Counted from the stretch's first letter, positions 1-15,827 are shown. The stretch: DNA of 15,827 nucleotides from Candidatus Latescibacterota bacterium (GCA_038279365.1 JAYODI010000103.1:1-15827), one strand, 5' to 3'. Made by a program: numbers and translations. Notes: generated from the sequence alone by a model not told the origin.

Positions 1-11
1 ACACGGTTGAT

Positions 12-95
12 CCGTTTGCCGTTTGCCGTTTGCCGTTTGCCGTTTGCCGTTTGCCGTTTGCCGTTTGCCCTTTGCCCTTTGCCCTTTGCCCTTTG
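12..95. repeat. Heptanucleotide tandem repeat (CCGTTTG)x8 followed by (CCCTTTG)x4
   Basis: Read directly: units start at 12,19,...,61 (CCGTTTG) and at 68,75,82,89 (CCCTTTG). Confidence 0.97.
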
Positions 96-104
96 CCTTC
101 CATC

Positions 105-119
105 TGGCACATCAATTGC
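105..119 (+). promoter_or_regulatory. sigma54 (RpoN) -24/-12 promoter
   Basis: TGGCAC-ATCAA-TTGC matches the TGGCAC-N5-TTGC consensus with exact GG-N10-GC spacing and points toward ORF 240..434. Confidence 0.75.
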
Positions 120-239
120 GAACATAGCTTATAGCAGAACAATAACCCAACAAAAAACGCGATAAAACAACACTTTTATTAAAAAATCCCCTTACAACTT
201 AAGGCAAAAACACGCAAAACATTCCCCTTGGAGGAAAAA

Positions 240-434
240 ATGTCCCCTAAAGCCATACAAAGCCTCATCGACATGTTCGGTGTCGAACACGGCGTACAAA
301 TCTTAAATCTATTTACAGCTCCCGAAGATGACGATATTGTCCTTCAGGCACAACAAACTTCGTCCATTCGACAACGTCCAAAAGAGTTGCTTCGCGATGT
401 CACGCTGCCAAGAGAAATACCGCTCAACAAATAA
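240..434 (+). CDS. Small hypothetical protein (64 aa), paralogue of 3256..3435
   Basis: GGAGG at 230-234 lies 5 nt before ATG 240, preferred over the ORF-track TTG at 228. It has a sigma54 promoter upstream and a hairpin downstream, and shares an LxxxF/YGxExGxxxLNxxTA motif with 3256..3435. Confidence 0.75.
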   Translation: MSPKAIQSLIDMFGVEHGVQILNLFTAPEDDDIVLQAQQTSSIRQRPKELLRDVTLPREIPLNK

Positions 435-448
435 TCGCCGGGGGGCAA

Positions 449-496
449 AGGTGCGGAGGGAGCCGGGAAACATTCCCCTCCGCGCCTCTAATTTTT
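449..496 (+). terminator. Probable intrinsic terminator between the convergent small ORF and cysK
   Basis: AGGTGCGGAGGG (449-460) pairs with CCCTCCGCGCCT (476-487) with one G-U pair on the + strand, followed by CTAATTTTT. Confidence 0.55.
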
Positions 497-1433: not shown

Positions 1434-1578
1434 CTATTCATCCTTTTTATAAATACACCCCAAAGCCCCATCTCAAACCCAAATAATATTTCCAATATTT
1501 ATGCCTTTTTACAATATAAAGGCCACATTGAAAGTGATCAACCTCTTTCCAAATGCATACTTACGGTAAAACCATATG

Positions 1579-1607
1579 TTGACAGAGATTTATACACCAC
1601 CTACATT
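1579..1607 (+). promoter_or_regulatory. sigma70-type promoter for 1644..3113
   Basis: TTGACA-N17-TACATT ending 36 nt upstream of the ATG. Confidence 0.7.
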
Positions 1608-1643
1608 TGTACTCCTGCTGCGAATTCTTTAAAAGGTTTTGGT

Positions 1644-3113
1644 ATGCTGAGCAAGCTCTTCATAAAACGAAAAACGGGATCTCGTCTCAGTCCTTTGGCA
1701 CAAACCCTACTCAAGTTATCAGCCATCAACATGAGTTCTGCCAACTGTACCCTCATACTCAATAAAGACAATCATTTAGAACCCGAAGACTTGGGCCGTG
1801 CCCTCTTCTTCAAATCCGACGGCAAACTCCTCATTCGCAATCGCGCCATCTATATCACCACACCCGATCACATCAAAGCAGAAAACCACGACCATTTTCG
1901 AGGGGCCGGCGACATTATCAGTTTGTGGTTTTTACACGAACATGTCCCCCGTAGCATTGACTGTCGTGTGGATGAGCGCGTGCAATTTCCACCAGACCTG
2001 GTATCCACACTCGATCCCAAAGTCGCCATTGGTTACAAACTTACGCCCTTAAGTGATATTTCCAAACAAGACAAACGCAGTTCATTGAGGTTTTCTCACC
2101 AACCAGGTCAGGGCGCCTTACCCGTTTACCCCCAAATTCTCTTCGATCTATTTATTCACAACACCGATCAAACCTATCCAGAAGAAGGGGCCATTGCGCC
2201 ACGCATTGAACACCTGCGCCTCTTGCCCGTTGACGAACAACAACAAAGGCTGTCTTCCGATTTTTTGGCAGAAGAATTGGTACGCCTTTTTAAACAAGAC
2301 ATACGCACCAACCCTTCAGAAACACGCCATGTCCATGTCAGCAAACCATATTTAGAAGAAAAACTCAACCGTTCTGTTTTACTCGAACTGGGCTTTTCAG
2401 ATGTACTGGGATTGGGCAGTGAAGAATTAGGGCGTAACATACATATCAAAAAGCCCATTATTTCTCGCATCAAAGACCGCAGAGACCCTCATTATTTAAC
2501 ATTAGGTGACGTGCTCATCTTGCACTACGGTGCGCGTGCCCAGTTTGACGGCCAGTCTACTTACCACGAGTTGGTCACAGAAATAACCAAAGGCGGTTTA
2601 GAAAACCTCACCATTCGCCCACTCTACACGATTCGCCAAGAGCACGGTCTGCGCGTAACACTCGCCGACTTTAGCGTAAACGGTTTGCGATTTGATTGTT
2701 CAACCGAATTTTTAACTTATATTCTGGGCAAAAATTATCATCAACAGCCCCTTGAAGAGCAAATTACAATCTTACAAAGCCGCATTTTGTTGCTGAATCT
2801 ATATCCCAAACTGCGTTTTAATCGAGATACAGAAATCTATCGTCCTGCACTTCCTAAACGCATTTCTATTTTGGGGAAAATTGTAAGATGTGAAATTGAC
2901 TGGGAAGATGAAGAAGAAAAATTGGGAGGGAAATTGGTGCGGGTAGGCGTTCAATTTATGTACGATCCTGCAGAATACTCACGAGACGTTTATGAATTTG
3001 ACCAATGGGAAAGAATTCGGGCTTTTAAAGAAAACCGCTATTTTAAAGAAGTACACAAATCACTAAACGGTCTCATTGCCTATTTAGAAAGCCAAACCAA
3101 AGACAACACATAA
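1644..3113 (+). CDS. Large PilZ-domain (YcgR-like) putative c-di-GMP effector protein
   Basis: 489-aa ORF. RxxxR motif (KRSSLRF, aa 145-149), DxSxxG motif (LADFSVNGLRF, aa 342-347) and PilZ-like terminal strands (ISILGKIVRC, RVGVQF). Confidence 0.65.
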   Translation: MLSKLFIKRKTGSRLSPLAQTLLKLSAINMSSANCTLILNKDNHLEPEDLGRALFFKSDGKLLIRNRAIYITTPDHIKAENHDHFRGAGDIISLWFLHEHVPRSIDCRVDERVQFPPDLVSTLDPKVAIGYKLTPLSDISKQDKRSSLRFSHQPGQGALPVYPQILFDLFIHNTDQTYPEEGAIAPRIEHLRLLPVDEQQQRLSSDFLAEELVRLFKQDIRTNPSETRHVHVSKPYLEEKLNRSVLLELGFSDVLGLGSEELGRNIHIKKPIISRIKDRRDPHYLTLGDVLILHYGARAQFDGQSTYHELVTEITKGGLENLTIRPLYTIRQEHGLRVTLADFSVNGLRFDCSTEFLTYILGKNYHQQPLEEQITILQSRILLLNLYPKLRFNRDTEIYRPALPKRISILGKIVRCEIDWEDEEEKLGGKLVRVGVQFMYDPAEYSRDVYEFDQWERIRAFKENRYFKEVHKSLNGLIAYLESQTKDNT

Positions 3114-3116
3114 AAA

Positions 3117-3215
3117 AATCAACGAATAAATTCTGATCCGTCAATTCGTTGATTACTCGCAACGCTCGTTGCCGCCTGCGGCTGTGGGTTGATTCGTTGA
3201 TTCGCCCATTTGTTG
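3117..3215. repeat. Intergenic mosaic of degenerate 8-bp units and short inverted repeats (REP-like)
   Basis: AATCAACGAAT (3117-3127) is inverted at 3144-3154 and 3192-3202. Mini-hairpins GCAACG-CT-CGTTGC and GCCGC-CT-GCGGC. Units TGATCCGT/CAATTCGT/TGATTCGT/TGATTCGC. Confidence 0.55.
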
Positions 3216-3221
3216 AATCAA

Positions 3222-3253
3222 AAAAAGGGACGCCAAATTTGGCGTCCCTTTTT
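3222..3253. terminator. Bidirectional intrinsic terminator
   Basis: Perfect 32-bp palindrome AAAAAGGGACGCCAAATTTGGCGTCCCTTTTT between convergent genes. Confidence 0.9.
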
Positions 3254-3255
3254 AA

Positions 3256-3435
3256 TTAAGCATCCTGTAGGGTCCCAGTTTCGAGCGTAAAAAAATTAAC
3301 ATTTTCACGCACGAAGTGGGCAGCTCTATGTTCAGAAATCATTCCAAACTGCCGAGCAGTCATCACATTAAGCAAGTCAAGCCCCTTTTCAAATCCATAC
3401 TTCTTAAACAACGCCTCTGAGTGGTCGCGCATCAT
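3256..3435 (-). CDS. Small hypothetical protein (59 aa), paralogue of 240..434
   Basis: AAGGGGAG RBS directly before ATG ATG (3435/3432), preferred over the ORF-track start at 3486. The stop abuts the terminator and the motif is shared with 240..434. Confidence 0.75.
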   Translation of the reverse strand: MMRDHSEALFKKYGFEKGLDLLNVMTARQFGMISEHRAAHFVRENVNFFTLETGTLQDA

Positions 3436-3592
3436 GCGGTCTCCCCTTAGGATAATAGGATGTGCCGATATAACTCGGCTTGGCATTTTGTGTCATAAGC
3501 ATCCATGCATCTTATGCCAGTTGATATTTGGTAACGAATTGGGTCGTAAATGAGGGGTGTTCCACATCACCTGTAGAACAAAATTTTATGTT

Positions 3593-3790
3593 CTAATCAC
3601 CTCCATCGCTATAGGTTAACGTCTGATACGAGCGCGTCATAAAGAACATCAAATCTTTATCGTTTGTGTGTGTGCCTTGCGCAGGCAGGGGAGAAAACGC
3701 ATCTTTGGCAGAAGGGGCCACCAAAAATGGATTCAACCCACGTTCACCAAACGTAATTGAGCTCGTATCTGTGACGTCCTGTGTAATCAT
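3593..3790 (-). CDS. Small hypothetical protein (65 aa), predicted sigma28-dependent
   Basis: AAGGAGGG RBS 5 nt before ATG 3790 (MITQDVTDTS...), with a near-consensus sigma28 promoter ~50 nt upstream. Confidence 0.7.
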   Translation of the reverse strand: MITQDVTDTSSITFGERGLNPFLVAPSAKDAFSPLPAQGTHTNDKDLMFFMTRSYQTLTYSDGGD

Positions 3791-3842
3791 AATTGCCCTC
3801 CTTGGCAAAGGTCTCGTTATTACTTGATACTACACAGTTATT

Positions 3843-3869
3843 TTATCGGATATTTGGCAGAAAGCTTTA
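3843..3869 (-). promoter_or_regulatory. sigma28 (FliA/SigD) promoter
   Basis: Minus strand reads TAAA-GCTTTCTGCCAAATA(15)-TCCGATAA against the consensus TAAA-N15-GCCGATAA. Confidence 0.8.
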
Positions 3870-3889
3870 GGTAATTTTTACCAATGACC

Positions 3890-3924
3890 AAAAAAAATGA
3901 GAGACATTGAAAAAATGCCTCTCA
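3890..3924 (-). terminator. Intrinsic terminator downstream of the GNAT gene
   Basis: Minus strand: TGAGAGGCATT-loop-AATGTCTCTCA (one G-U) followed by T8. It insulates the sigma28 promoter. Confidence 0.8.
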
Positions 3925-4132
3925 AAAACATAAATACCTTATTATGAGTGTGTTACAAACCCAGGCCTTTTTTTAACCCATTCCAAACAGGCCAATTCAC
4001 ACGCTTCCCTCAACCATCGTAATAACTGCTTTCCAAATAAGCATGTTAGGAAAGAAGAAAAATCTCGGGTGTTTCTTTTTTCTTTTCTCTTCTTTCTTCT
4101 CCCTAATAGATTAAGTGATTTAATCAGCGAGC

Positions 4133-5368
4133 CTAAAGCGAGTCAGCAAGCCAAAAAAAAGAGCCACGCTTAGGAAATAACCGCACCAAAAATGCATCTA
4201 AAGCTGAGTCACCTTCTGGATCGCACAATTGATCCACCCCCAGCAACACACGCACAAAAGCCCCTTCTGAAAGTGCCAAATGCCAATCGACATTTCCAAC
4301 CACATCTACTTCCCGAATCACAACGTCATCACCAACCGTTATTTCCACCTGACGCGTCCCCACAGTCAATCCCAATCGTCCACGCAATTTATGCCCCAAC
4401 ATACGTCGCTTAAACAAGCCAGACATTTGTATCAAAATCTGTGGCATATCCAAAATCTTTGCTTGTAACTCGTGATCTTCGTGAACATCAATCTCTGCAC
4501 CATATTGCGACATCGTAATCAGCAAACGGTTTCTTGGTGGCAAAAAGGCCATCAAGTGTTTGCACCCCACTTGATCCCCCCAAGCCAAACACGCCAGAAG
4601 CAAACGATCTGCACCCACCTCATTCACACACCCCGCTTCATAAATAACCAGTCGATCTCCAGCCCAACAAACCCGCACAAACCCAACATCATCCAACAAC
4701 AAACAAGCATCTTGTTCGGCCACAATACCCAACAAAAGATCATTGCACAGTAACATCGTTTTGGGGTGTTGTGTCTGCAACATCCATTGCCAACGCCGAT
4801 CATCGGCAACAACGGCACCAAATGCCCGATCAGACAAAGACAATCGCGAAAGCAAAGAAACATCATCTATTGTCGCAAGTCGCAATGCATCAGAACAAGG
4901 TAATTCTGCTATGGCCATGTGCGCGTTGGCCTCTACATAGGCCGGAATAAACCCATATTGGGTGTAAAACCTGGGATCTCCTGCCACATGAAGCATCAAA
5001 ACACCTTTTTTACGTGCCAAAACCTCCAAATCACCAATCAACGCACGCCCAATACCTTGTCCTCGAAACGCATGGCCTACCACTACCATTGCAACAATCC
5101 CACCTTGCAATACCACATCACCCAACCCAAACGGGCGCAATGCCAATAATGCATGCCCAATCACTTGCCCATCACAAACAGCAATGCGCGAATGTGCGGG
5201 TGTTGAAAGCACCTGACCATACAACTGGGCAAAGGCATGCCCCACACCAGGGCGAACTTCAAATGCCTCGCTCAACAAATTGCGCACCGCCAGTTGCTCA
5301 GATGAGGTCTTTGCATCTTGAATTTGAAAGGACAAATAAGGGTTCCTAACACGCAACAAATCTTTCAC
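4133..5368 (-). CDS. GNAT family N-acetyltransferase, Eis-like multidomain architecture
   Basis: 411 aa. Acetyl-CoA motif A (VVVGHAFRGQGIGRALI) and FYTQYGF, then a second GNAT-like region and a probable SCP2-like C-terminus. The GTG start is uncertain. Confidence 0.8.
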   Translation of the reverse strand: MKDLLRVRNPYLSFQIQDAKTSSEQLAVRNLLSEAFEVRPGVGHAFAQLYGQVLSTPAHSRIAVCDGQVIGHALLALRPFGLGDVVLQGGIVAMVVVGHAFRGQGIGRALIGDLEVLARKKGVLMLHVAGDPRFYTQYGFIPAYVEANAHMAIAELPCSDALRLATIDDVSLLSRLSLSDRAFGAVVADDRRWQWMLQTQHPKTMLLCNDLLLGIVAEQDACLLLDDVGFVRVCWAGDRLVIYEAGCVNEVGADRLLLACLAWGDQVGCKHLMAFLPPRNRLLITMSQYGAEIDVHEDHELQAKILDMPQILIQMSGLFKRRMLGHKLRGRLGLTVGTRQVEITVGDDVVIREVDVVGNVDWHLALSEGAFVRVLLGVDQLCDPEGDSALDAFLVRLFPKRGSFFWLADSL

Positions 5369-5522
5369 TTATGAATGTATATTTCAAATATATGCAACTT
5401 CGTGCGACATCCGTTACTTGGCAATCTGTCAAGTTTTCGAACAATTGCATAATTGTTATGAGAGCGAATTTCCAAAAACAACCTTAACAATCCAAGCACC
5501 CCCAATTATTCAGGTCATCAAA

Positions 5523-6701
5523 TTACTTTCCAATAGGCAACCAGATCAAAAAAGTAGTGCCGTCACCCGGTACACTATTGGCCGTAATCTTACCCTCATG
5601 ATTTTCAACAATACCTTGGCAAATCGAAAGCCCCAACCCCGTTCCATTTGCCTTCGATGTAAAAAAGGGATCAAAAATACGAGTCAAATTTTCCTCAGAA
5701 ATACCTTCGCCTGTATCGACCACCCTAATTTCAACGCCTTCTTTCTCCTCGCGGTTGCGCAAGACGGTCGTTACCGTCAAATGATCCCCCCGTTTCATGG
5801 CATCCAGGGCATTACCAAACAAATTCAGGAATATCTGCGACATCTGATCCTGATCCACAAAGATTTGCTTTAAAGATCCCAAGTTTTTGGAGATATTAAT
5901 GCCTTTTTTCGATAACTCATGTGACAGCAAATCAACCGCATCAGATATCAGCTTATTGATGTCTATCCAGGTCCTTTCTGGTGGGTGCTGCTTGGAAAAA
6001 TCACGCAAATTATCCAGAATCTTTACCGCCTTTAAAATCTGTTCTACACCAATTCTCAAATTCTTTTGGTGTTCTATGCTCAAACGCTCGTCCAGCTTCA
6101 TCATCTCAAGTCGCCCCGTTGCCACCGTAAGCGGGTTTAAAACCTCATGCACCACCCCTGCAGACAACCGCCCTACAGCCGACAGTTTTTCACTATGTGC
6201 CAGTTCTGAATAAGCACGTTCAAGTTGTTGGCTACGTTCCCTCACCCGTTCTTCCAAATGATCATTCATATCCTGTAATTGCACATTCTGTATCTCAAGC
6301 TGCTCCGACAAGGCACGATTTTCTTGAATCAAACGTACCCGATCAAATCCCATCTTTACTGCCATTTGCATTTCTTGCGAATTCCAAGGTTTTACAATAA
6401 ACCGATGGATTTCACCTTCATTTACACCTGCCGTAATGGTGCTCAAATCAGCGTATCCCGTCAACATAATGCGAAATGTATCGGGCCAACCCAGTCTCAC
6501 TTTTTTCAAAAACTCGGCACCTTCCATTCCTGGCATTCGCATATCAGACACCACCACAGAAACCGTTTCATGCCGTAAAACCTCAAGACCTTCTTCACCA
6601 CTTTGTGCCAGAAAAACTTTATCAGCAACCCGGTTCATTTCACGCTGCAAAGCGTGTAACACATTTTCTTGGTCATCCACGCACAACACAATATCAGACA
6701 T
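5523..6701 (-). CDS. Hybrid response regulator-histidine kinase (REC, coiled coil, HisKA, HATPase)
   Basis: LCVDD / VSDMRMP / IVKPW receiver; H-box VHEVLNPL; NLFGNALDAM, DTGEGI, FDPFFTSK, GTGLGL. ATG 6701 overlaps the stop of the upstream kinase. Confidence 0.92.
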   Translation of the reverse strand: MSDIVLCVDDQENVLHALQREMNRVADKVFLAQSGEEGLEVLRHETVSVVVSDMRMPGMEGAEFLKKVRLGWPDTFRIMLTGYADLSTITAGVNEGEIHRFIVKPWNSQEMQMAVKMGFDRVRLIQENRALSEQLEIQNVQLQDMNDHLEERVRERSQQLERAYSELAHSEKLSAVGRLSAGVVHEVLNPLTVATGRLEMMKLDERLSIEHQKNLRIGVEQILKAVKILDNLRDFSKQHPPERTWIDINKLISDAVDLLSHELSKKGINISKNLGSLKQIFVDQDQMSQIFLNLFGNALDAMKRGDHLTVTTVLRNREEKEGVEIRVVDTGEGISEENLTRIFDPFFTSKANGTGLGLSICQGIVENHEGKITANSVPGDGTTFLIWLPIGK

Positions 6702-8109
6702 CTTCAACCTCTCCCCTCAAAGGCAAGTAAATAGTAAAGGTAGTTCCTTTGCCAACCTCACTTTGCACTGCAATACGTCCATTGTGTTTTTCAATAATCC
6801 CATGAGAAATAGCCAACCCCAACCCGGTTCCAGTACCAACTGGTTTAGTAGTAAAAAATGGATCGAACAAATTCCCCATATACTCAGGTAAAATGCCCTT
6901 GCCGGTATCTTCAATTTCCACCACAATCTGCTCATTTTGCACACACGTGCGAATGCGTATCTCACCCTTCTCATCAATGGCCTGAGCTGCGTTGGTCAAT
7001 AAATTCATAAACACCTGGTTCAACTGGGCTGGGTAACAAACCAATCGCGGCAAATCACCATAAGACTTAATCACATCAGCTTTGTATTTAATGGCATTCC
7101 AAATCACCTTCAAGGTCGATTCAATGCCTTCATGAATATCCATTTCTTTGATTTCTGCCTCATCCAACCGGGCAAAATTGCGCAAACCCAGCACAATATC
7201 CTTCACCCGTTCTGCCCCCTCAACAGACTCTTTGACCAATTGTTTAATATCCTCTAAAATAAAATCCAAGTCCTCTTCTGTCTTTAGAGCATTTAGCTGT
7301 TCGACATGCAAATCAATATCGTTTGCATCTTGGGCCTGTATCGCACCCATAAGCTGGTCATAACAATCGAAAAAATTCTTAAATGTATCCACATACTCAT
7401 TTAGAGTACCCAAATTGCTCATCAAAAACCCAACGGGGTTGTTAATCTCATGAGCAATGCCCGCAGCCAGTTGCCCCAAACCAGCCATCTTTTCCTGATG
7501 TACCATTTGCGTTTGGGTTTGTTTGAGTTGTGTGTTTGCCTGCTCCAGTTCTTCTTTGTTTCTTTGCAAAGCTTCTTGTGCTTCTCTGCGAGGGGTAATA
7601 TCCTGCATAGTACCCTCATAGTACAAAATTTGTCCATTTCCATCGCGCACAATATGAGCATTTTCAGTAATCCAGCGCACTTCACCATTTTTTTGACGAA
7701 TTTGTGACTCAAATCCACTCAAATATTCATTTTCTTCCAGCAATTTTTGAAAAACCTTTCGTCTATCTTTTTCAACATAAAACAGATCTAACCCATTTTC
7801 CTGATCAGCTTTCAGAGCTTCAAATGAATTATACCCTTTAATTTCTATGAGGCGATTATTTGCACTTAAATAATTGCCATCTGGTTTTTTTTGATAAATA
7901 CCTTCAATCGCATTTTCAAAAATGCTGCGATAGTTTCGCTCTGCCAATTTCAGATCTTCAAGTGTTTTATATAACTCACGAGACTTAACTTCAAGCAATT
8001 CTTCCGCTCGCAACCGGGCTTTCATTTCACGTTCTCGGGCGCGTTTCTGTATTTCTAATTCAGCTTCAAGCCCAACCATTTTTCCTGAAACATCGTCCAG
8101 TTCGCCCAT
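6694..8109 (-). CDS. hnoK: H-NOX-associated PAS sensor histidine kinase (HnoK-like)
   Basis: N-terminal REREMKARLRAEELLEVKSRELY helix, typical of H-NOX partner proteins. PAS/PAC (YRSIFENAIEGIY...GTMQDIT), H-box AHEINNP and N/G1/F/G2 boxes. Lies immediately downstream of H-NOX. Confidence 0.88.
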   Translation of the reverse strand: MGELDDVSGKMVGLEAELEIQKRAREREMKARLRAEELLEVKSRELYKTLEDLKLAERNYRSIFENAIEGIYQKKPDGNYLSANNRLIEIKGYNSFEALKADQENGLDLFYVEKDRRKVFQKLLEENEYLSGFESQIRQKNGEVRWITENAHIVRDGNGQILYYEGTMQDITPRREAQEALQRNKEELEQANTQLKQTQTQMVHQEKMAGLGQLAAGIAHEINNPVGFLMSNLGTLNEYVDTFKNFFDCYDQLMGAIQAQDANDIDLHVEQLNALKTEEDLDFILEDIKQLVKESVEGAERVKDIVLGLRNFARLDEAEIKEMDIHEGIESTLKVIWNAIKYKADVIKSYGDLPRLVCYPAQLNQVFMNLLTNAAQAIDEKGEIRIRTCVQNEQIVVEIEDTGKGILPEYMGNLFDPFFTTKPVGTGTGLGLAISHGIIEKHNGRIAVQSEVGKGTTFTIYLPLRGEVEDV

Positions 8110-8121
8110 ATAAACAACCCC

Positions 8122-8674
8122 TTATGCAGATCCTAAAAAAGTAATTTCAAAACGGTAATATGTTTCGTCATTTTCTTTCACTTCTATCGTCTTACGAGCG
8201 ATTTTTTCCGAAAAAAACTTGGCCGCACCATCAATCAGTCCTTCGGCTACAGAAGGTAAATTTCTTGCCGGACGATAAATCATTATTAGCTGGTCTTCTG
8301 CAGGTTCTTCATATTCAAAAGTGGGCAACTTGGCATCTGCATACAATTTTTTTTACTTCTGCATGCACAATAGCATGAACGTTTCTCAAGAATATTTTAA
8401 GCGTTGTCCCATCTTTCACACTATCTGGATAAACTTGCACCAATGGTTCCAGTGCATATTCGCCATATGTGCGCAAAAGATCCTCTAAGGATATCCCCGT
8501 CAAGTCCGACAAAGCCACGACCAAAGCCACCATCTCTTCATCGGAATAGGTATCTACACTGGTATATGCCCCTCCAGATTTAGGATCCACACGGCCCAAA
8601 ATTTCATCCCACACCGCCAAACCAAATTTTTCTTCTACAAGCTTGCCAAATACATTAAACATGATGCCTTTCAT
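8122..8674 (-). pseudogene. hnoX: H-NOX (heme NO-binding, HNOB) protein, frameshifted at an A8 run (8347-8354); 183 aa if one A is removed
   Basis: ORF 8315..8674 gives MKGIMF...FG...W...YTSVDTYSDEE...VHAEVKK. ORF 8122..8346 continues LYADAKLPTF...YRPAR...GLIDGAA. A7 instead of A8 joins them as the family-typical HAEVKKLY. This may be a true frameshift, a slippage site or an assembly error. Confidence 0.88.
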
Positions 8675-8688
8675 GTCTCAATCTCCAA

Positions 8689-9249
8689 TTAATACATTAA
8701 TTCGTTTATTTTTTCTAATAGGGTGCTGTTATCAAAAGGTTTTTGCAACAAGTCGTCTGCACCTGCCTCAACGGCCGCCTCCAATTCGGACAAATCGAGT
8801 GCAGAAACTACCAACACACGTGTTTCGTGCAATATGTCACATTCTTTAATAAAATCTAAGACTTCGCGCCCTGAAATACCTGGCATACTCAAATCCAGTG
8901 TGACCATATGGGGTATGAAGGTGCCTAACATCGCACCAGCAGAAAAGCCATCGGGAGCAATCAGCGTTTGATAACCTTTTCTTTTTAATACACGTCGGAT
9001 GGCCTTGGCCATGGCATCGTCATCATCGACAATCAACACACGCTTATTTTTTTCCTGAAATACATCAGGAATAGGCATCTTATTCTGTTTGAGAAATTCA
9101 ATAAAATCTTCTATTTCTATACGATTATCACCACGCCCCGGCAATTGATAGGCTTTTAGATGCCCCCGCTCAATCCACCGAATAACCGTACGAAAATTAA
9201 CGCCGCAATACTTTGCGACTTCTCCAGTTGTCAAAACATGTTTATCCAT
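8689..9249 (-). CDS. hnoC: Response regulator with N-terminal excisionase/MerR-like HTH and C-terminal REC (HnoC-like transcription factor)
   Basis: LTTGEVAKYCGVNFRTVIRWIERGHLKAYQLPGRGDNRI HTH, then VLIVDDD / TLDLSMP / LQKP receiver. Adjacent to H-NOX as in described hno networks; RBS GAGAGGTG. Confidence 0.85.
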   Translation of the reverse strand: MDKHVLTTGEVAKYCGVNFRTVIRWIERGHLKAYQLPGRGDNRIEIEDFIEFLKQNKMPIPDVFQEKNKRVLIVDDDDAMAKAIRRVLKRKGYQTLIAPDGFSAGAMLGTFIPHMVTLDLSMPGISGREVLDFIKECDILHETRVLVVSALDLSELEAAVEAGADDLLQKPFDNSTLLEKINELMY

Positions 9250-9267
9250 TCATTCACCTCTCTCAAT

Positions 9268-10497
9268 TTAACTGCCTATTTGCATCAAATAAGCCTTTAA
9301 CTCTAATAAGTCCTGCGACCCCATACCCACCTTGTTTAAAATTCTTGGTTCTATGTGAATACGCGCAAAATTACCACTCAAACCAATACCGAATTGCTGA
9401 ACGCAAGCATTTGCAATGTGCACAACATCAACAACCTGATCTTCTTGAACCGACATTCCAGGACTGTGGTGCCACCTGATAACATCCGTAACAACAGGTG
9501 ACAAATCCCACCACTCAGACAAATAGGCCCCCGTTTCCATATGGGTCATTTGCATCACTTTTTTTTCTGCGTCTCGCAATGTAATATGTTCAGCCTGTGC
9601 AAGTTCAACTGCTTGTACAAAATCCTCGTGTAGATAACAATCTTCAAACATTTTTCCAAGGTCATGTAACAAACCTGCTGTAAATAGTTTATCAGAAATC
9701 ACCTGTTCCAAACCCGTTTTTTTACCAATCCAGCGCGAAGCGAGACCACTTGCAAGCGAATGTTTCCAAAAACCTTCTCGAGAATAACCTGCAGGTGGGG
9801 GTGTATCTGGCTGGAGCATATCAAACACAGACATCGACAAAACAAGCCCCTGCACCATTTCCATACCCAAAACGACAACTGCACGCTGAATGGTATCAAC
9901 TCGGTTGCGCTGGCCAAACAATGCCGAATTCGCCCATTTGAGCAGTCGTACGGAAATAGATGGGTCTTGTTCGATCTCCTGACCTATTTGCTTGATAGAT
10001 AAGTTGCTGGATTGAGCAAGTATTTCTTTTATTTTTAAATAACTCTGAGGTAATGTGGGCAAATTATCAACTTCTATCACTTTTGAACCCAAAAGTGGCA
10101 TTGTGTTTTGAAGTGAATCATTTGTGGTGAGCAATTTAGATAAAACTGACCTGAGTTCATTTGGCTCCCACGGTTTCGTAATCATCTGATGGGCACACTC
10201 ATTTTGTAGCATCGAAGCAACAACATCTCGATCAGCATATCCTGTCAAAATAACACGTATGGTATGAGGATATAAATCTTTAATTTTGCGCAAAAATCCT
10301 GCACCATCCATCTCTGGCATACGCATATCGGAAACTACGAGATCAACCGGGTGTTCTGTCAATAAATCCAATCCTTCTTTTGCACAATTTGCAAAAAGAA
10401 GATGCCAAGGTTCTTTCCGTAAAAGCCTTCGTAACGAGGACAATACGGGTGGATCGTCATCTACAAAAAGTACTGTTTTTTCAATTTTGTCTGCCAT
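9268..10497 (-). CDS. Response regulator with HDOD output domain (REC-HDOD)
   Basis: LFVDDD / VSDMRMP / TKPW receiver. HDOD hallmarks LPTLP, DPSISVRLLKWANS, FWKHS, GLLHDLGK and IRWHH. Confidence 0.92.
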   Translation of the reverse strand: MADKIEKTVLFVDDDPPVLSSLRRLLRKEPWHLLFANCAKEGLDLLTEHPVDLVVSDMRMPEMDGAGFLRKIKDLYPHTIRVILTGYADRDVVASMLQNECAHQMITKPWEPNELRSVLSKLLTTNDSLQNTMPLLGSKVIEVDNLPTLPQSYLKIKEILAQSSNLSIKQIGQEIEQDPSISVRLLKWANSALFGQRNRVDTIQRAVVVLGMEMVQGLVLSMSVFDMLQPDTPPPAGYSREGFWKHSLASGLASRWIGKKTGLEQVISDKLFTAGLLHDLGKMFEDCYLHEDFVQAVELAQAEHITLRDAEKKVMQMTHMETGAYLSEWWDLSPVVTDVIRWHHSPGMSVQEDQVVDVVHIANACVQQFGIGLSGNFARIHIEPRILNKVGMGSQDLLELKAYLMQIGS

Positions 10498-10506
10498 GAC
10501 ATATCC

Positions 10507-12642
10507 TTAGTTTTTAGCTTTGTCTGCAACAACCTTGCCAGCAAACAAAAATGTAATAGCATCCTCATCTCGATCAACAATCATTTCTGCCTCACCAAAG
10601 CGAATCACACTACGAGCATGTAGTTTTTTGGCAATTTTGATTTGACTATTAAAAATCCCCTTTTCAACCCGGCGATTTAATTGATCCAACTCTGCTTCAT
10701 AGGTTTTGCGAATGCTCGACAAATCTTTCAGTTTTTTAATCACGCCCACATAATGATCACGTTGTTTGCCAGATAACATGGTTAAGCGCTGTTTAATAGC
10801 CTCACCATCAAATGCGTCCACACCCAGCGAACGCATCAACTTTGACAATTGTACATCACAAACCGAAACATTATTCTTCAACTTTTCTATTTTGGCCTGT
10901 TCTTCAGGATCTGCCTGAACAGACAAAATAGTTCCCGGCACAGAGTCAGACCCCACAACAGCCACCTGAATGCCTTTTGCCGCACTCACCATGCCTCCCA
11001 CCACACTGCCACTTCGTTCGCCACCACCAGCAGGCACTGTTAAGATGCCCCCACAACGTACCTGTGCATTGTGGATATAGCGCCCACACCACAAATCTCC
11101 TTTCACCACCACCACGGCATTTTGGATAAATTGTGCCCGCAATTCACCCATAACCACCACACGTGTTGTTTTACCCACAATCCCACGCCCAACCGTCAAG
11201 TTACCCTTTGCTCGCACCGATGCCCCAGACTCTATTGTACCTCCAATGGTAACAGAACCACCCGCGCGCACTTCAAATCCTGTCTTAACAGATCCCACAA
11301 TATGAACATCTTTTTCAAATGTAACGTTTCCTGTCTCATAATCCACATCACCTGAAATGCGATATATCGGATTGACCGACACATGGCCAGCACGCACAAA
11401 AACAGCGCCACTCAATGTGGCATAAACCGCAGGCACCATCAAACCTTTATACTCAGCTTCAGTCAATCGTGCGCCTTCCCCAGCCCCCAGTGCCGTATCT
11501 TGCCCATCTGTTGCAGATAAAACATCGCCCAAAAGTGTACGCCCTGCACTACCTTTTGTGGCAGGCAACTTTCGCACAATCAAATCACTTTCTGCCACAT
11601 TGTGAATCAGATTGCGCTCACGCAAATCAATCGATCCATCTTCCATCACCTGTCCAGGCTTTTGAGATAAGTCCACCTCATAAATCAAACGCGCATCTTC
11701 ACCTTGAACGGCCGGCACACCTTGTGCAATCAATGTGGCGGTATTCTTATTTAAGCCTGCTAGGTTTGCCAAAACCTGGTCCAAGTCTTCTCTTGCCAGA
11801 CCTTGGTCAATGCCCAAAGTTGCCAGTGCATCCATAATGTATTCTTTAGATATGGATTGAAATGGTGTAACACTGTCGAAATGCACATAAAATACCTGCA
11901 TTTTATCGGGCGACATCCAAAATGGAGGCAAAACCGATATTGTTTTGCCCTCATACATCACAATGCCCCAAACATCTGCCTTTAATTTTCGGCCTTCGCG
12001 TTTGACCCCACTGCCAGCTACAAATTGTCCGTCGGTGATCACGGGCACAGGCTTGTCATAAACATCCGTACCAGCACCATCGGCCACTTCTGCAAATTCG
12101 ACCAGCACATCGTCAGGATAAACCATCCATGCCTGAGAATAAGGTTTTTCTACTGTCAACAAATCTTCTGCATCAAGTACATCTCTGATATTCTTAAAAT
12201 GGATGCTCATTGTTCCAATTTGCCAGTAACTGCCCTGAATATCTAAATCTCCATTGGCCTGCAACAAAGGCAATTTGGGAAAAGGCGCACGAACAGGTGG
12301 TGTACCCGTGGCAATTTCAACATTGCCTTTCCACAAAGAGGCTTTTTTAAGGTGACCATCAACAGCCATCAATGCCTCACCATGAATACCATGTACAATG
12401 CCATGCTCCTTCAATAGAGCCAGCAAAGATTCGGGTGAAAAACCATCCCCAACTTTCTGTACAGACTTGAGCCTGACTGACATCAACATCGCATCAATTG
12501 TCCACACCACTTTCCCCCAAGAGGTTGTCACTGCCATGTCACCAGGCACAGGTGCACATTCCGCATTGGCTAACATCGGATCTTTTTGTGGTTTTTGATT
12601 TTGGGTAGGTGTTTTCACAGTTTGCTCTAAACTATAAATCAT
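10507..12642 (-). CDS. fapA: FapA family flagellar assembly protein (DUF342) with duplicated N-terminal module
   Basis: IAQGVPAVQGEDA, DGSIDLRE, GRTLLG, GDVDYETGNVTF and beta-helix repeats, then a C-terminal coiled coil. The start overlaps the stop of the upstream gene (12632-12642). Confidence 0.85.
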   Translation of the reverse strand: MIYSLEQTVKTPTQNQKPQKDPMLANAECAPVPGDMAVTTSWGKVVWTIDAMLMSVRLKSVQKVGDGFSPESLLALLKEHGIVHGIHGEALMAVDGHLKKASLWKGNVEIATGTPPVRAPFPKLPLLQANGDLDIQGSYWQIGTMSIHFKNIRDVLDAEDLLTVEKPYSQAWMVYPDDVLVEFAEVADGAGTDVYDKPVPVITDGQFVAGSGVKREGRKLKADVWGIVMYEGKTISVLPPFWMSPDKMQVFYVHFDSVTPFQSISKEYIMDALATLGIDQGLAREDLDQVLANLAGLNKNTATLIAQGVPAVQGEDARLIYEVDLSQKPGQVMEDGSIDLRERNLIHNVAESDLIVRKLPATKGSAGRTLLGDVLSATDGQDTALGAGEGARLTEAEYKGLMVPAVYATLSGAVFVRAGHVSVNPIYRISGDVDYETGNVTFEKDVHIVGSVKTGFEVRAGGSVTIGGTIESGASVRAKGNLTVGRGIVGKTTRVVVMGELRAQFIQNAVVVVKGDLWCGRYIHNAQVRCGGILTVPAGGGERSGSVVGGMVSAAKGIQVAVVGSDSVPGTILSVQADPEEQAKIEKLKNNVSVCDVQLSKLMRSLGVDAFDGEAIKQRLTMLSGKQRDHYVGVIKKLKDLSSIRKTYEAELDQLNRRVEKGIFNSQIKIAKKLHARSVIRFGEAEMIVDRDEDAITFLFAGKVVADKAKN

Positions 12643-13693
12643 TCAAAACATCATCAAGGGTTACATCTAAAGATGTCAAATCTGTTTTCAACTGCGAATC
12701 TTGAATGGCCACAGCCGCCTGCATGGTAAAATTGCAAATCATCTCAATATCATTTTCATCAAGCGGTGCCTGAGTATCATGTCTGCGCGCCTCTACAAGT
12801 CCCAAACAAGTCGGTCCCTTCACAATAGGAATCGCCACAAACGCAGACACCTCGTAAACCTGCTCACCAACAGTTACCTGCCCCCGTTCCTTATTCACTG
12901 GCATTTTTTGTGCAATGGCCTGTTCAAAAATCTGGCAATGCGCCAAACGATCCTTTAAATAAGACAAATCAGAAGCATTCTGCCAGCCATCTTGGCCATT
13001 AATACCCTTGCCCAATTGTGCAACTAACGCCTCAACCGATCCTCCCAGATAAACAACAATCTCATCAACACCCACCACTTCACAAATCACTTCAATCACT
13101 GTTTGTAGTGTATCATCAAGGGTGTGTACCTCCAAAATATGGTGCAAAATACGATCTCGCCCCTGAAGTTCTTTCACCTTCTGTTGCAACTGTTCGTGCG
13201 CCAAACGTAAAGCTTCTGTACGTTTGGCAACCTTATCTTCCAATCGATGGTTCCATTCTTCTAACAATGCATTTTTATTTTGGAGCTCTTCGGTCAGTTC
13301 TTTGTTTTCCAATATCAGTTCATATCGTGCAATGGCTTCATCCAACGTGTTTTTCAAATCCAAATCATTCCATGGCTTTGACACATAACGAAAAACCCCA
13401 CCCTTGTTAATGGCATCCATGGCCGCTTCGAGTTCTGAATACCCCGTCAATATTATCCGACTGGCATCGGGTAACAAATCGCGCGACTTACTCAAGAACT
13501 CGGCTCCATTCATTTCTGGCATGCGTTGGTCAGATACAATTACAGATGGCGACTCACCACCTTCGATCAATGCCAGTGCTTCAGACCCACTTTGAGCAAT
13601 CAATATACGATGTGGCGTTTTTCGAAATAGGCGTTGAAGTGAATGCAAAATATTGGGTTCATCATCTACAAAAAGAAGAGTATGCCTGTTCAT
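12632..13693 (-). CDS. Response regulator, REC-coiled coil-GAF
   Basis: LFVDDE / VSDQRMP / VSKPW receiver, heptad coiled coil, GAF-like C-terminus (FVAIPIVKGPTCLGLVEA...FTMQAAVAI). No catalytic output domain. Confidence 0.88.
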   Translation of the reverse strand: MNRHTLLFVDDEPNILHSLQRLFRKTPHRILIAQSGSEALALIEGGESPSVIVSDQRMPEMNGAEFLSKSRDLLPDASRIILTGYSELEAAMDAINKGGVFRYVSKPWNDLDLKNTLDEAIARYELILENKELTEELQNKNALLEEWNHRLEDKVAKRTEALRLAHEQLQQKVKELQGRDRILHHILEVHTLDDTLQTVIEVICEVVGVDEIVVYLGGSVEALVAQLGKGINGQDGWQNASDLSYLKDRLAHCQIFEQAIAQKMPVNKERGQVTVGEQVYEVSAFVAIPIVKGPTCLGLVEARRHDTQAPLDENDIEMICNFTMQAAVAIQDSQLKTDLTSLDVTLDDVLNDL

Positions 13694-13714
13694 ATAAAAT
13701 CTCTCTACCGAAAT

Positions 13715-13769
13715 GGCAAAAAATGACTATTGTGACATTTGAGACAAATATCGCTACATTTCTCACAAA
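13715..13769. promoter_or_regulatory. Direct-repeat operator candidate upstream of the signalling operon
   Basis: ACATTT-NNN-ACAAA occurs twice 21 bp apart (13735-13748, 13756-13769). GAC triplets occur at a 9-bp period (13725, 13734, 13743). Confidence 0.45.
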
Positions 13770-13783
13770 AAGCAAGGTTGAAT

Positions 13784-13825
13784 AAAAAAAAACCATTTTG
13801 ATGTTAAAAAAACATCAAAATGGTT
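13784..13825 (-). terminator. AT-rich perfect inverted repeat; terminator or operator
   Basis: AACCATTTTGATGTT-N5-AACATCAAAATGGTT (13791-13825), followed by a T-run on the minus strand. Confidence 0.65.
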
Positions 13826-13836
13826 ATAAATTCTAC

Positions 13837-13903
13837 AAAAACAAAACCAGTACCACACCCAGAGTAGTTAATTTTTCAAACCTGCTCTGGCGTGTGATAC
13901 TGG
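13837..13903 (-). terminator. Long hairpin terminator after ORF 13910..14110
   Basis: Minus strand: CCAGTATCACACGCCAGAGCAG / CTACTCTGGGTGTGGTACTGG (about 20 bp, with one bulge, one mismatch and one G-U), followed by TTTTGTTTTT. Confidence 0.75.
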
Positions 13904-13909
13904 GAGCGG

Positions 13910-14110
13910 TTAATTCTCTTGTTTATGGGTTTCTGCAAACAATCTAAAAAGACGTTCGTGGCATTCTTCAATAATGTTCAAAGCCCGCTTAGAAGTTCTA
14001 TCACCAGCCTGAATACTAGGAATCAAATCGTTCATAAATTGCAATTGCCCCAGCAATTGCTCTACCATGAGTTCTTTTACATCAAGTCCTATGCGATCTT
14101 GGCTGACCAT
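13910..14110 (-). CDS. Small hypothetical helical protein (66 aa, MVSQDRIGLD...)
   Basis: AGGAG RBS 8 nt before ATG 14110, directly after the stop of 14112..14366, with a terminator immediately downstream. The ORF-track extension to 14296 overlaps the upstream gene and is not used. Confidence 0.7.
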   Translation of the reverse strand: MVSQDRIGLDVKELMVEQLLGQLQFMNDLIPSIQAGDRTSKRALNIIEECHERLFRLFAETHKQEN

Positions 14111-14111
14111 T

Positions 14112-14366
14112 TCAATAACTCCTGTAACACCACTCGTGCATCGACTGTGCCAACATTTTTTTTGCTTCTTGATATACCTGATTGTGGTTGAAACTTTTTC
14201 GTGGAAATAGATAGACTTGAACGGGTGAATGCAAACGAGGAGAAACAACCTCAATTTTGGATTGCCAATAGGTTTCATCTTCAGAAAATGCCACACGATA
14301 AAGGAATTTTTGATTAGCTACCGAAACACAAAAAAGATCATCTTCATTTGTTCCTTCTTTGAACAT
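14112..14366 (-). CDS. Small hypothetical protein (84 aa)
   Basis: AAGGA RBS before ATG 14366, protein-like composition, and 1-nt spacing to the next ORF. Confidence 0.65.
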   Translation of the reverse strand: MFKEGTNEDDLFCVSVANQKFLYRVAFSEDETYWQSKIEVVSPRLHSPVQVYLFPRKSFNHNQVYQEAKKMLAQSMHEWCYRSY

Positions 14367-14481
14367 GATTAAAATTCCTTAAGTGAATCAAATTTATCTA
14401 TGGCCCTTAACACAAGCACTCAGGATATTAGAAGAAAGCATTGTACTAAAAAATGAAAAATCAAGGCTCAAAATGCCCAAT

Positions 14482-14605
14482 AGAAACAATAAAGTACTCT
14501 GGCAGATAATGCACGCTACCGGGGGGCAATGGCACACCATCTCACCAGAGTACCACTGAGGAAGTTACACACAACAAATTTCAGAGGCATTTTATAAGAC
14601 CCAAC
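14482..14605 (-). ncRNA. Candidate sigma54-dependent small RNA or attenuated 5' leader (~120 nt)
   Basis: Begins ~12 nt downstream of a sigma54 promoter. Ends in a 60-nt hairpin (14553-14494) whose inner stem relies on G-U pairs available only on the minus strand, with a C-rich loop, followed by TTTATTGTTTCT. Confidence 0.5.
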
Positions 14606-14616
14606 GATCAGGATAG

Positions 14617-14631
14617 GCAAATCAGATGCCA
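14617..14631 (-). promoter_or_regulatory. sigma54 (RpoN) -24/-12 promoter
   Basis: Minus strand TGGCAT-CTGAT-TTGC with exact GG-N10-GC spacing. An AT-rich tract and repeated TGCAC elements lie upstream. Confidence 0.72.
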
Positions 14632-14847
14632 AAACATCTTTTATGACAAGCTTATTTCTATTACATCCCATTCACGACCTGTTACATCAGGGGCAAAATT
14701 CATAAAAACAAGATTTTAAAAAAACAAAAAAACTGTTATGTAAAAAACATTCTTATCCCTCACTAAGATGCATTTCGCAATTTACCCCCCCCCAAAAAAA
14801 TGCACAAAAATGCACAGGCGGGGCACTTGTGCACAGGGGTGCAAAAA

Positions 14848-15827
14848 TTAAATAATGCAATCTATGCGCTGCTCTCCAAATTCCTTAATATATCGCCCTA
14901 CATGCCACCACCCTCTTCTCTGTTTACCCTTCCCCTTTTCTTCACTGAAACCATTTTGCAAATTCTCGTGAGATTCCTCCGCATTACACACTCGCAACGA
15001 CTTCACAACTATGCCTTGTTCTTTGAGTCCGCCCAACAAATTTGGCAATTGCTTTTGGAGTTTATCCACAACTTCACCAACTGAACAGGCTAATTCCCCC
15101 AAGATCGCACCCTTTTTCTGGACCAAGGTTACACGAATCAAACCAAGTCTTTCATCACGAACAGCAAATGTAATAGTGGTATCAGGGATGGCAGAAATGG
15201 TTTTGGTTTTTTTTATGACAACATCAGACAACGCTAATATATCTGAAGATATTATATTTGTTTTCCGAAGCGCCTCCTCAGAATAAGTGGGGAGATGGTT
15301 TGAAAGTAATGGTTCTACTTCCCTGCGAATATCCGGAGGCATGACATAATCAGATTTTAAATGCTCAAAAACGCTTTGAGCATCCCAAACCCTTTGAGAA
15401 CCACCAGCAAGGCCATCCCCCTCCCTATCACCCTGGCCATAAAAAACAGCATCATTTGCCCCCTCCCCAAGCTGTACCTTAAGATTTTTTTTTGTTTGGA
15501 ACTCAGTACCTTGTTCCCCAAAACCCAAATCCTCTTCGATTTTATTTTCATTCACACCTACATCTTCTGGTGCACTCAGCATAAAAATATCTTCTTTTGT
15601 TTTCATTAATCCAAAACCAATAGCCTGCACCTCTCCAACTTCCTCTTCTCTTTGTGTTTTTGCTTTTTCTGCAGCATTGCCCCAATGCTTGCCTCCTGAC
15701 AACCAAGACCTGTCTACGTCGCCACTACGTGCGAGGTCACTGCCTTCACTCTCAGCCTCAACAACAGCCTTCGCCTGCACCTCTCCAACTTCCTCTTCTC
15801 TTTGTGTTTTTGCTTTTTCTGCAGCAT
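14848..15827 (-). CDS. fliK: Flagellar hook-length control protein FliK-like, 3' part (frame open to the window edge)
   Basis: C-terminal T3S4-like segment TITFAVRDERLGLIRVTLVQKKGAILGEL...KLQKQLPNLLGGLKEQGIVVKSLRV, preceded by a long acidic low-complexity region. No in-frame stop between 15780 and 15825. Confidence 0.65.
   Translation of the reverse strand, partial: AAEKAKTQREEEVGEVQAKAVVEAESEGSDLARSGDVDRSWLSGGKHWGNAAEKAKTQREEEVGEVQAIGFGLMKTKEDIFMLSAPEDVGVNENKIEEDLGFGEQGTEFQTKKNLKVQLGEGANDAVFYGQGDREGDGLAGGSQRVWDAQSVFEHLKSDYVMPPDIRREVEPLLSNHLPTYSEEALRKTNIISSDILALSDVVIKKTKTISAIPDTTITFAVRDERLGLIRVTLVQKKGAILGELACSVGEVVDKLQKQLPNLLGGLKEQGIVVKSLRVCNAEESHENLQNGFSEEKGKGKQRRGWWHVGRYIKEFGEQRIDCII
15623..15827. 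repeat. Exact 55-bp direct repeat, 150-bp period (50 aa), inside the fliK-like gene
   Basis: 15623-15677 is identical to 15773-15827 and encodes AAEKAKTQREEEVGEVQA. The second copy runs to the window end. Confidence 0.95.

Follow-up and report, generated by a model that had tools for sequence, protein, structure and literature searches.

The stretch of DNA analysed here, called the window throughout, comprises positions 1-15827 of a 17909-nt contig (C118) in a metagenome-assembled genome (MAG) of a Candidatus Latescibacterota bacterium (6.03 Mb in 199 contigs, 98.5% complete, 7.4% contaminated). It carries a cluster of seven genes in which an H-NOX gene, a cytoplasmic PAS-domain histidine kinase (HK) and an HnoC-like regulator are joined to a receiver-GAF protein (REC-GAF) and a protein of the DUF342/FapA family. 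We regard the cluster as a new form of Hno-type network, with an H-NOX/kinase/HnoC core joined to a portable output module. Taken as one operon, it would constitute a branched two-component network with an H-NOX/PAS-kinase input, four receivers and a portable REC-GAF/DUF342 output, a reading on which we are evenly divided. A wider proposal is that REC-GAF/DUF342, often with a receiver-HDOD protein (REC-HDOD) and a receiver-kinase (REC-HK), forms a portable two-component output cassette in sulfate-reducer-like bacteria, each copy turning one signal (nitric oxide (NO) or redox state via H-NOX; a periplasmic ligand) into phosphorylation-dependent control of DUF342 at the flagellar motor or cell pole; this is offered tentatively, and we regard it as somewhat unlikely.

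Bacterial H-NOX signalling is understood mainly as the control of cyclic di-GMP (c-di-GMP) enzymes or of quorum-sensing relays. An H-NOX core that is repeatedly tied to non-catalytic receivers and DUF342, in a genome lacking EAL domains, points to a different output route. The phenotypes of DUF342/FapA proteins vary by species, and the steady pairing with REC-GAF offers a testable idea, namely that phosphorylation controls DUF342. If the proposal is true, it would provide the first regulatory logic for the DUF342/FapA family, and a cell with up to a dozen cassettes would integrate many inputs on motility without c-di-GMP hydrolysis. In the literature searched, with subscription journals outside it, no paper treated both H-NOX and HDOD, nor both H-NOX and FapA.

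Gene content and layout

Seven genes run head to tail on the minus strand from 13693 to 5523, as judged from open reading frame (ORF) calls and Pfam matches. An earlier note on this stretch had described seven co-oriented genes with the same domains, and the Pfam searches bear this out. In operon order the genes are:

12632-13693, minus strand: REC-GAF response regulator, 353 aa, first gene of the operon (Pfam Response_reg 2e-18, GAF 3.9e-10)
10507-12642, minus strand: DUF342/FapA-family protein, 711 aa (Pfam FapA_N 1.9e-41, FapA beta-solenoid 2.1e-52)
9268-10497, minus strand: REC-HDOD response regulator, 409 aa (Pfam HDOD 7.9e-55, Response_reg 4.9e-22)
8689-9249, minus strand: HTH_17-REC regulator of HnoC-like architecture, 186 aa (Pfam HTH_17 1.5e-10, Response_reg 5.1e-22)
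8122-8674, minus strand: H-NOX gene, broken (frame A 8674-8315, frame B 8352-8122)
6694-8109, minus strand: cytoplasmic PAS-HisKA-HATPase histidine kinase, 471 aa, in HnoK-like position right after H-NOX (Pfam)
5523-6707, minus strand: REC-HisKA-HATPase protein (REC-HK), 394 aa, last gene of the operon (Pfam)

The successive junctions are an 11-nt overlap, gaps of 9, 18, 14 and 12 nt, and a 14-nt overlap. The first of these places the start of DUF342 over the stop of REC-GAF, as had been noticed before, and the last places REC-HK over the stop of the kinase. The 12-nt gap between the H-NOX stop and the kinase start is obtained by counting frame B, and with that proviso the earlier statement that all spacings are overlaps or below 20 nt is sound; as the sequence stands, however, the gap 3' of the frame A ORF is 205 nt. 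The domain assignments are well above the Pfam cut-offs for FapA_N (141.8 bits against 27) and the FapA solenoid (178.9 against 31) in DUF342 and for HDOD (PF08668; 185.8 against 22.9) in REC-HDOD, and the HTH_17-REC protein is of HnoC type by architecture only (HTH_17 plus Response_reg).

Recurrence of the H-NOX/DUF342 linkage

A survey of 132 genomes of the class found H-NOX in 12, all of which carry DUF342. In 4 of these 12 the two lie in one cluster: this genome, G127, G085 and G064, with G127 and G085 belonging to another family than the genome of the window. By Pfam, the order in G127 (contig C614) is HnoC, H-NOX, 3xPAS-HK, REC-HDOD, REC-GAF, DUF342, and that in G085 (contig C45) is H-NOX, PAS-HK, CHASE8-HAMP-HK, a REC-HDOD fragment, REC-HDOD, REC-GAF, DUF342, REC. 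The G064 cluster (contig C69) is decayed, with H-NOX in two frames, a kinase lacking its ATPase domain, a C-terminal fragment of DUF342, and REC-HDOD. The earlier note had let its proposal depend on fapA lying beside the hno genes in relatives, and this condition does not count against it: DUF342, REC-GAF and REC-HDOD do lie in the H-NOX clusters of G127 and G085, and G064 has a remnant. G080, a congener of G085, has only H-NOX and PAS-HK at the same site and lacks the 7.5-kb output segment of G085, and a metagenome locus (L122) reads HnoC-like, REC-HDOD, REC-GAF, DUF342. Homologues of H-NOX (P0001), FapA (P0031, 61%) and REC-GAF (P0074, 68%) share a longest contig of 25385 nt, and the sizes 19687 and 9589 nt are each shared by a FapA and a REC-GAF homologue, co-location being read in these cases from equal contig size only.

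The HnoX/HnoK/HnoC core that had been recognised previously is present, and an H-NOX/kinase/HTH-REC core is common to loci L016-L018 (Planctomycetaceae and a Vampirovibrio MAG), with HnoC-like proteins 55-57% and kinases 46-52% identical to those of the window; the HTH-REC protein of the window is 54% identical to that of G127. Adjacency of H-NOX and kinase is found in L016-L018, G127, G085, G080 and G084. Among 80 H-NOX loci from other phyla, REC-HDOD accompanies H-NOX in 9, and the 3 closest have an HnoC-type HTH.

A quick IQ-TREE analysis (39 rows) separates the H-NOX proteins of G127, G085 and the window into three starred clades, and the DUF342 tree (47 rows, several long branches) has two, one uniting the window with its C88 paralogue and the other uniting G127, G085 and L122 with the C117 paralogue. 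Since three H-NOX clades and two DUF342 clades are involved, the linkage was assembled or kept more than once. A rival explanation is that two unrelated operons, REC-GAF/DUF342 and the hno core, were juxtaposed by chance; it could draw on an hno paralogue in this genome (C19, see below) that lacks REC-GAF/DUF342, and on the position of the pair relative to REC-HDOD, which differs between the window and G127/G085. Nevertheless, 4 of the 12 H-NOX genomes share the set, with H-NOX and DUF342 proteins of differing lineage, its junctions are overlaps or gaps of 9-18 nt, and one contig from an RNA library (X15; 10346-10600) bridges the DUF342/REC-HDOD junction. We consider this rival very improbable, and the H-NOX/DUF342 association is not a matter of chance.

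The first third of the window (1-5329) is syntenic with two genomes of the same genus (G001, G002), and the synteny stops after a GNAT gene, from which we conclude that the contig belongs to this organism and that the cluster is a lineage-specific addition. The names of distant homologues, and a protein atlas, indicate Thermodesulfobacteriota/Deltaproteobacteria. A clean insertion could not be shown: in G003 a FliG paralogue lies near a PALP gene, but in the opposite orientation and with other genes between. In the same genus, locus L119 (G002, contig C43, 6764-10364) holds a kinase and REC-kinase pair 59-64% identical to that of the window; the sensor region is longer there, H-NOX is lacking, and the REC-kinase is divided between ORFs of 111 and 255 aa.

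Paralogues and the modular use of REC-GAF/DUF342

The genome has a second H-NOX gene, intact (183 aa, with YRSKR), at the start of contig C19. The order there is REC-HDOD, HTH-REC, H-NOX and the N-terminus of a PAS-kinase, with products 62-76% identical to those of the window. The kinase is cut by the contig end and probably continues on C112, which opens with a kinase C-terminus and a REC-kinase. REC-GAF/DUF342, in turn, is present three times: in the window, on C88, where the order is REC-GAF, DUF342, REC-HDOD, a periplasmic binding protein and a kinase, with a REC-HisKA gene further on, and on the 2.6-kb C117, which is cut at its end after REC-GAF and DUF342. The REC-HDOD of the window is 62% identical to its C19 paralogue and 37% to that of C88. 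As the C88 and C117 copies sit in other contexts, REC-GAF/DUF342, with or without REC-HDOD, is a module used with different sensors; REC-HDOD/HnoC/H-NOX/kinase/REC-kinase is a second module, and the window joins both. Five DUF342 matches in this genome exceed the cut-off, and a weak DUF342-like gene on C17 follows a single-domain receiver. C88 (locus L011) holds another DUF342 gene at 2641-5343, which is split (FapA_N 3451-5343, solenoid 2641-3348, two TAA codons inside the match) and preceded by a DUF6901 gene.

Of the 132 class genomes, 43 carry DUF342, with as many as 12 matches in one genome. Among 21 loci from relatives and from this genome's own paralogues (found with the protein of the window; flanks of 1.5 kb), 11 have REC-GAF as the gene immediately upstream of DUF342. 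When the best DUF342 locus per genome was taken from 29 class genomes, REC-GAF was upstream in 8 and a receiver-only protein of similar size in 2, with 5 of the 29 loci cut by contig ends and not assessable; the long DUF342 forms in this sample (860-1046 aa) have no upstream REC-GAF. The genes 3' of DUF342 in relatives encode REC-kinases, a sigma54 activator, an HD-GYP protein and a receiver with an unassigned output, and one relative (G095, contig C4) has the order REC-HDOD, REC-GAF, DUF342, REC, REC. A 98%-identical copy of the window's DUF342 protein is found in other assemblies.

Receivers and the question of a c-di-GMP output

The receivers retain the conserved residues expected in alignments, including an Asp at the phospho-acceptor position, and in a 38-sequence alignment residues D10, D11, D55, T83 and K106 of REC-GAF are invariant or nearly so. 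Those of REC-GAF, REC-HDOD and REC-HK are 40-45% mutually identical (REC-HK 45% to REC-GAF and 40% to REC-HDOD), and the HnoC receiver is 25-29% identical to these. The same three proteins best match the NosR-family REC-HD-GYP model NF053512, with 219, 156 and 212 bits over model positions 1-171, 1-123 and 1-167 of 422, below its cut-off of 400 bits. The likeness thus covers the receiver and helical linker, and the HD-GYP half is absent. Since paralogues unlinked to H-NOX share the partial match, it marks a receiver subfamily typical of REC-HD-GYP regulators, and neither family membership nor a pathway.

The Hno network of Shewanella oneidensis and Vibrio cholerae, the subject of work by Plate and Marletta in 2012 and 2013, reportedly consists of HnoX, HnoK, HnoB, HnoC and HnoD. 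The cluster of the window resembles it in the stand-alone H-NOX beside a cytoplasmic histidine kinase, in the HTH-REC regulator of HnoC architecture, in having several receivers beside one kinase, and in one receiver with a non-catalytic HD-related domain (HDOD here, a degenerate HD-GYP in HnoD). It differs in that the genome has no REC-EAL (HnoB), that HDOD replaces HD-GYP within the cluster, and that REC-GAF, DUF342 and REC-kinase genes are added; moreover, the H-NOX copy is broken in this strain and belongs to a clade without the Cys residues of most aligned relatives. REC-HDOD proteins are also known from elsewhere, as Xanthomonas GsmR is a REC-HDOD regulator with a reported motility link; the likeness is one of architecture, by description only, and unlike GsmR the present protein is set among H-NOX, REC-GAF and DUF342.

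Could the output nevertheless be c-di-GMP? In such a scenario REC-HDOD would act like HnoD on an HD-GYP phosphodiesterase, the phosphate would really go to a REC-HD-GYP protein encoded on contig C169, a cyclic nucleotide would be the ligand sensed by REC-GAF, and DUF342 would be a bystander. The genome has the parts for it, with 5 HD_5 (HD-GYP) proteins, the C169 protein being the one with a receiver, 5 GGDEF matches and 7 PilZ matches; the receivers of the cluster, apart from matching the NosR-family model best, are 47-55% identical to those of REC-HD-GYP proteins; and one relative (L113) has an HD-GYP gene 3' of DUF342. Yet all four H-NOX/DUF342 clusters are free of HD-GYP, EAL and GGDEF genes, REC-GAF is inherited together with DUF342 and translationally coupled to it, and the NosR-type receiver is shared by paralogues without H-NOX, so that we hold a c-di-GMP output to be quite improbable. 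No EAL domain was found in the whole genome (98.5% complete), and the receivers carry GAF, HDOD and kinase domains, in agreement with the earlier claim of outputs free of EAL and HD-GYP. HDOD is unusually expanded in this EAL-free genome, with 15 matches.

Inactivation of the H-NOX gene

In this strain the H-NOX gene, which the earlier note had treated as a single gene, is broken; it carries two lesions that had been overlooked, a frameshift and a Ser-to-Pro change. The window holds two pieces and no single intact H-NOX ORF of about 180 aa: frame A (8674-8315, 119 aa) matches HNOB (PF07700) positions 1-109 (1-114 for the piece that scores 80.9 bits), and frame B (8352-8122, 76 aa) matches positions 108-160 with 38.9 bits, both above the Pfam cut-off of 25.5 bits. 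The break corresponds to one additional A in an A8 run at 8347-8354, where A7 would hold the frame. At a distance of 76 nt, the YxSxR motif reads YRPAR, the codon CCG at 8271-8269 specifying Pro in place of a Ser that all 26 aligned homologues share. The His in IVHAEVKK corresponds to H104, equally invariant in the 26 homologues, which we take to be the proximal haem ligand. One homologue (P0004, 183 aa) is the same H-NOX with an open frame and the Ser.

The lesions were compared with Logan contigs from four runs. Two independent metagenome runs, X2 and X7, have 1 nt fewer at 8347 and A for G at 8271, which restores the frame and a Ser codon (TCG), and run X1, the likely source sample, agrees with the window over both lesions at a depth of 3.3. 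Run X7 has, in addition, a 22-nt deletion at 8587 (8587-8611), which lies between CCACAC direct repeats and is seen in one contig at depth 3.9; it would be a second, independent H-NOX frameshift in another population. True inactivation fits better than sequencing error, because two linked lesions occur in one population and a different lesion in another. Independent lesions of this kind in nature suggest that, of all parts of the circuit, the sensor is the one most easily dispensed with.

In the Vibrio cholerae H-NOX, Cys residues form a redox-sensitive zinc site. The clade of the window's H-NOX (P0001-P0007 and both copies of this genome) lacks these residues (KLC...C...HC), which are present in most of the distant aligned relatives.

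It might be asked if the operon of this strain is a decaying remnant, without NO sensing or selected function, its wiring merely historical. Apart from the two lesions 76 nt apart, one of them at a Ser that all 26 aligned homologues keep, and the repeat-flanked deletion in X7, this would accord with the broken H-NOX, truncated kinase and DUF342 fragment of G064, with the lack in G080 of the output segment seen in its congener, and with the presence of an intact paralogous hno cluster on C19. On the other hand, the six other genes of the window are open and full length, and the contigs of X2, which has the intact H-NOX allele, show no indel in any of them (one 7757-nt contig spans 7894-15652). 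Contigs of RNA library X15 overlap parts of 5 of the 7 genes, although such contigs demonstrate neither transcription nor a single transcript, and the lesions themselves are read at the shallow depth of the likely source sample. On balance we think decay distinctly unlikely, and the branched network with an inactivated sensor remains our preferred reading.

DUF342 and the flagellar link

FapA of Vibrio vulnificus is sequestered by EIIA-Glc. According to the accessible part of a preprint (bioRxiv 10.64898/2026.10.23.761471), FapA is required for flagellation (polar flagellar assembly) in V. vulnificus, and in Helicobacter pylori flagellation proceeds without it, the protein restraining migration, interacting with a motor-cage protein and acting at the motor in the control of motility and biofilm. 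The accessible portion of a second preprint (PMC13277936) places FapA among the components co-present with flagella. The protein of the window shares FapA_N, the FapA beta-solenoid, a helical hairpin and a small C-terminal beta domain with the proteins of V. vulnificus and Borrelia burgdorferi as far as these are described in the first of these sources (10.64898/2026.10.23.761471); unlike them, it is one of several paralogues and is coupled to REC-GAF and a two-component operon instead of the phosphotransferase system (PTS), the likeness being one of architecture only. The role of the family is not uniform, because the H. pylori protein is dispensable for assembly, and in the same partly available source it has no detectable PF03961 match (10.64898/2026.10.23.761471).

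The AlphaFold model of DUF342 (mean predicted local distance difference test (pLDDT) score 86.1) has N-terminal mixed domains, a beta-solenoid, a long helical hairpin and a small C-terminal beta domain. A Foldseek search of this model against PDB gave no match at E <= 0.001, with only small L27-like barrels at E >= 0.065. A weak similarity to the C-terminal domain of MinC (Pfam 0.0014; 4v02_C at E 0.019, the sole PDB profile match) is not significant. A complex prediction for DUF342 residues 230-711 with full-length REC-GAF, both as alignments, scored 0.01 and 0.00, which bears neither way on an interaction.

The gene neighbourhood had been taken to indicate flagellar wiring, with fliK, a PilZ gene and sigma28/sigma54 promoters nearby, and only part of this holds. 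A FliK-like match is indeed present in the window, but its score is below the Pfam cut-off (24.7 against 29.8 bits); none of the 7 PilZ (PF07238) matches of the genome is on this contig; and the small flanking ORFs have no Pfam match at E <= 0.1. The sigma54-like pattern has 3 matches against 1.0 +/- 0.97 expected, a number reached by 13 of 200 shuffles, and the one sigma28-like site, with one mismatch (TAAAG-N14-TCCGATAA, 3843-3869, minus strand), lies outside the cluster. The ORF downstream of this site (3808-3593, 71 aa) matches no family. The wiring to flagellar assembly itself is not upheld either, given that DUF342 is matched 5 times here and as often as 12 times in genomes of the class, that the C88 module stands behind another sensor, and that the neighbourhood is not conserved. 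Because DUF342 is a multi-copy, regulator-coupled family, "flagellar assembly" rests on a family name and is not a finding.

A true FliG gene lies just past the window (C118, 16495-17511). FliG_C is expanded in this genome, with 8 matches on contigs C31, C194, C118, C26, C191, C17 and C48, at least 4 of them full length at about 340 aa, and four relatives have 10 (G003, though it has no FlhA), 10 (G077), 15 (G125) and 3 (G042) matches. In G003, G077 and G125 these copies do not stand beside DUF342 genes, and FliG next to the cluster was accordingly ruled out as a conserved link.

In the 132 genomes, DUF342 and FlhA are both present in 36, DUF342 only in 7, FlhA only in 9, and neither in 80; put otherwise, FlhA occurs in 36 of 43 genomes with DUF342 and in 9 of 89 without it. 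Within genus g25, DUF342, FlhA and H-NOX all occur in the same 4 of 31 genomes, and 6 of the 7 genomes with DUF342 only are incomplete. Our best guess is a motility- or pole-related target of DUF342.

The most serious competitor is that DUF342 has nothing to do with flagella and is a generic beta-solenoid scaffold, for instance a MinC-like partner of a MinD/ParA-type ATPase or a polar organiser, each paralogue being under its own REC-GAF and the output being division, polarity or something else. The number of paralogues would fit a scaffold, as would the similarity to MinC, had it been significant, the complete genome G003, and the failure of G127, G085 and G064 to keep a flagellar neighbourhood. 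Against it stand the co-occurrence with FlhA, the shared distribution in g25, and the association of the studied family members with the pole or motor, or with flagella at large, as given in the available parts of the two preprints (10.64898/2026.10.23.761471; PMC13277936). We regard the scaffold as unlikely, and retain a motility- or pole-related target as the working assumption.

Proposed mechanism and its difficulties

In characterised H-NOX/HnoK pairs, H-NOX sets the autophosphorylation of the kinase. By analogy, the stand-alone H-NOX haem sensor of the window would bind the cytoplasmic PAS kinase encoded next to it and govern the autophosphorylation of that kinase; in this strain, because the H-NOX of the window is inactivated, the input would have to be supplied by the PAS domain of the kinase itself or by the intact C19 paralogue. 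We infer that the kinase phosphorylates the four adjacent receivers. The HnoC-like HTH-REC protein would provide transcriptional feedback, REC-HDOD and REC-GAF would be further phosphoacceptors, and REC-kinase might serve as a second relay step or as a phosphate sink. REC-GAF/DUF342, usually with REC-HDOD, would be a portable output cassette placed on different sensor kinases of the class, with H-NOX as one recurrent input. The most likely mechanism would be that phosphorylation of REC-GAF alters the activity or location of the translationally coupled DUF342 through a putative interaction between the two, and DUF342 may act at the cell pole or flagellar motor, as studied FapA proteins do. The result would be a control of motility versus settling without EAL-type c-di-GMP hydrolysis.

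A number of observations weigh against the network as proposed. H-NOX was found in none of the 40 nearest relatives, including 2 of the same genus; in the class survey the 54 other genomes from the organism's own order gave none either (families f1, 0 of 30, and f2, 0 of 22), nor did the 3 of f3, another family of this class. The 80 H-NOX loci of other phyla all lack DUF342, and only 1 of 80 metagenomic REC-HDOD loci (L122) has it. No REC-GAF or DUF342 lies upstream of the hno cluster on C19. The H-NOX of the cluster is broken here and may be broken in X7 too, so that this copy may be dispensable or the operon decaying. No flagellar genes flank the clusters of G127, G085 and G064, such flanks being confined to this genome, and the complete genome G003 has 5 DUF342 genes and no FlhA at E <= 1e-20. 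The association of DUF342 with FlhA is confounded by shared ancestry and lifestyle; it is an association and not proof, because the genomes are kin. Finally, the REC-HD-GYP protein of C169 could be an alternative phosphoacceptor with a real c-di-GMP output.

Flanking features

One further feature precedes the operon:

13791-13825, minus strand: terminator-like hairpin, 15 pairs and a T run, about 100 nt upstream of the REC-GAF start (a lead only)

This hairpin probably ends an upstream transcription unit, although the hairpin scan as a whole is at chance level (10 found against 9.5 +/- 3.7 expected). Motif scans showed no convincing sigma70, sigma54 or sigma28 site directly upstream of REC-GAF. 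Between the cluster and the FliK-like gene lie small ORFs (13910-14366) with no Pfam or NCBIfam match; they are covered by the deepest contig of RNA library X15 (depth 15; 13994-14464).

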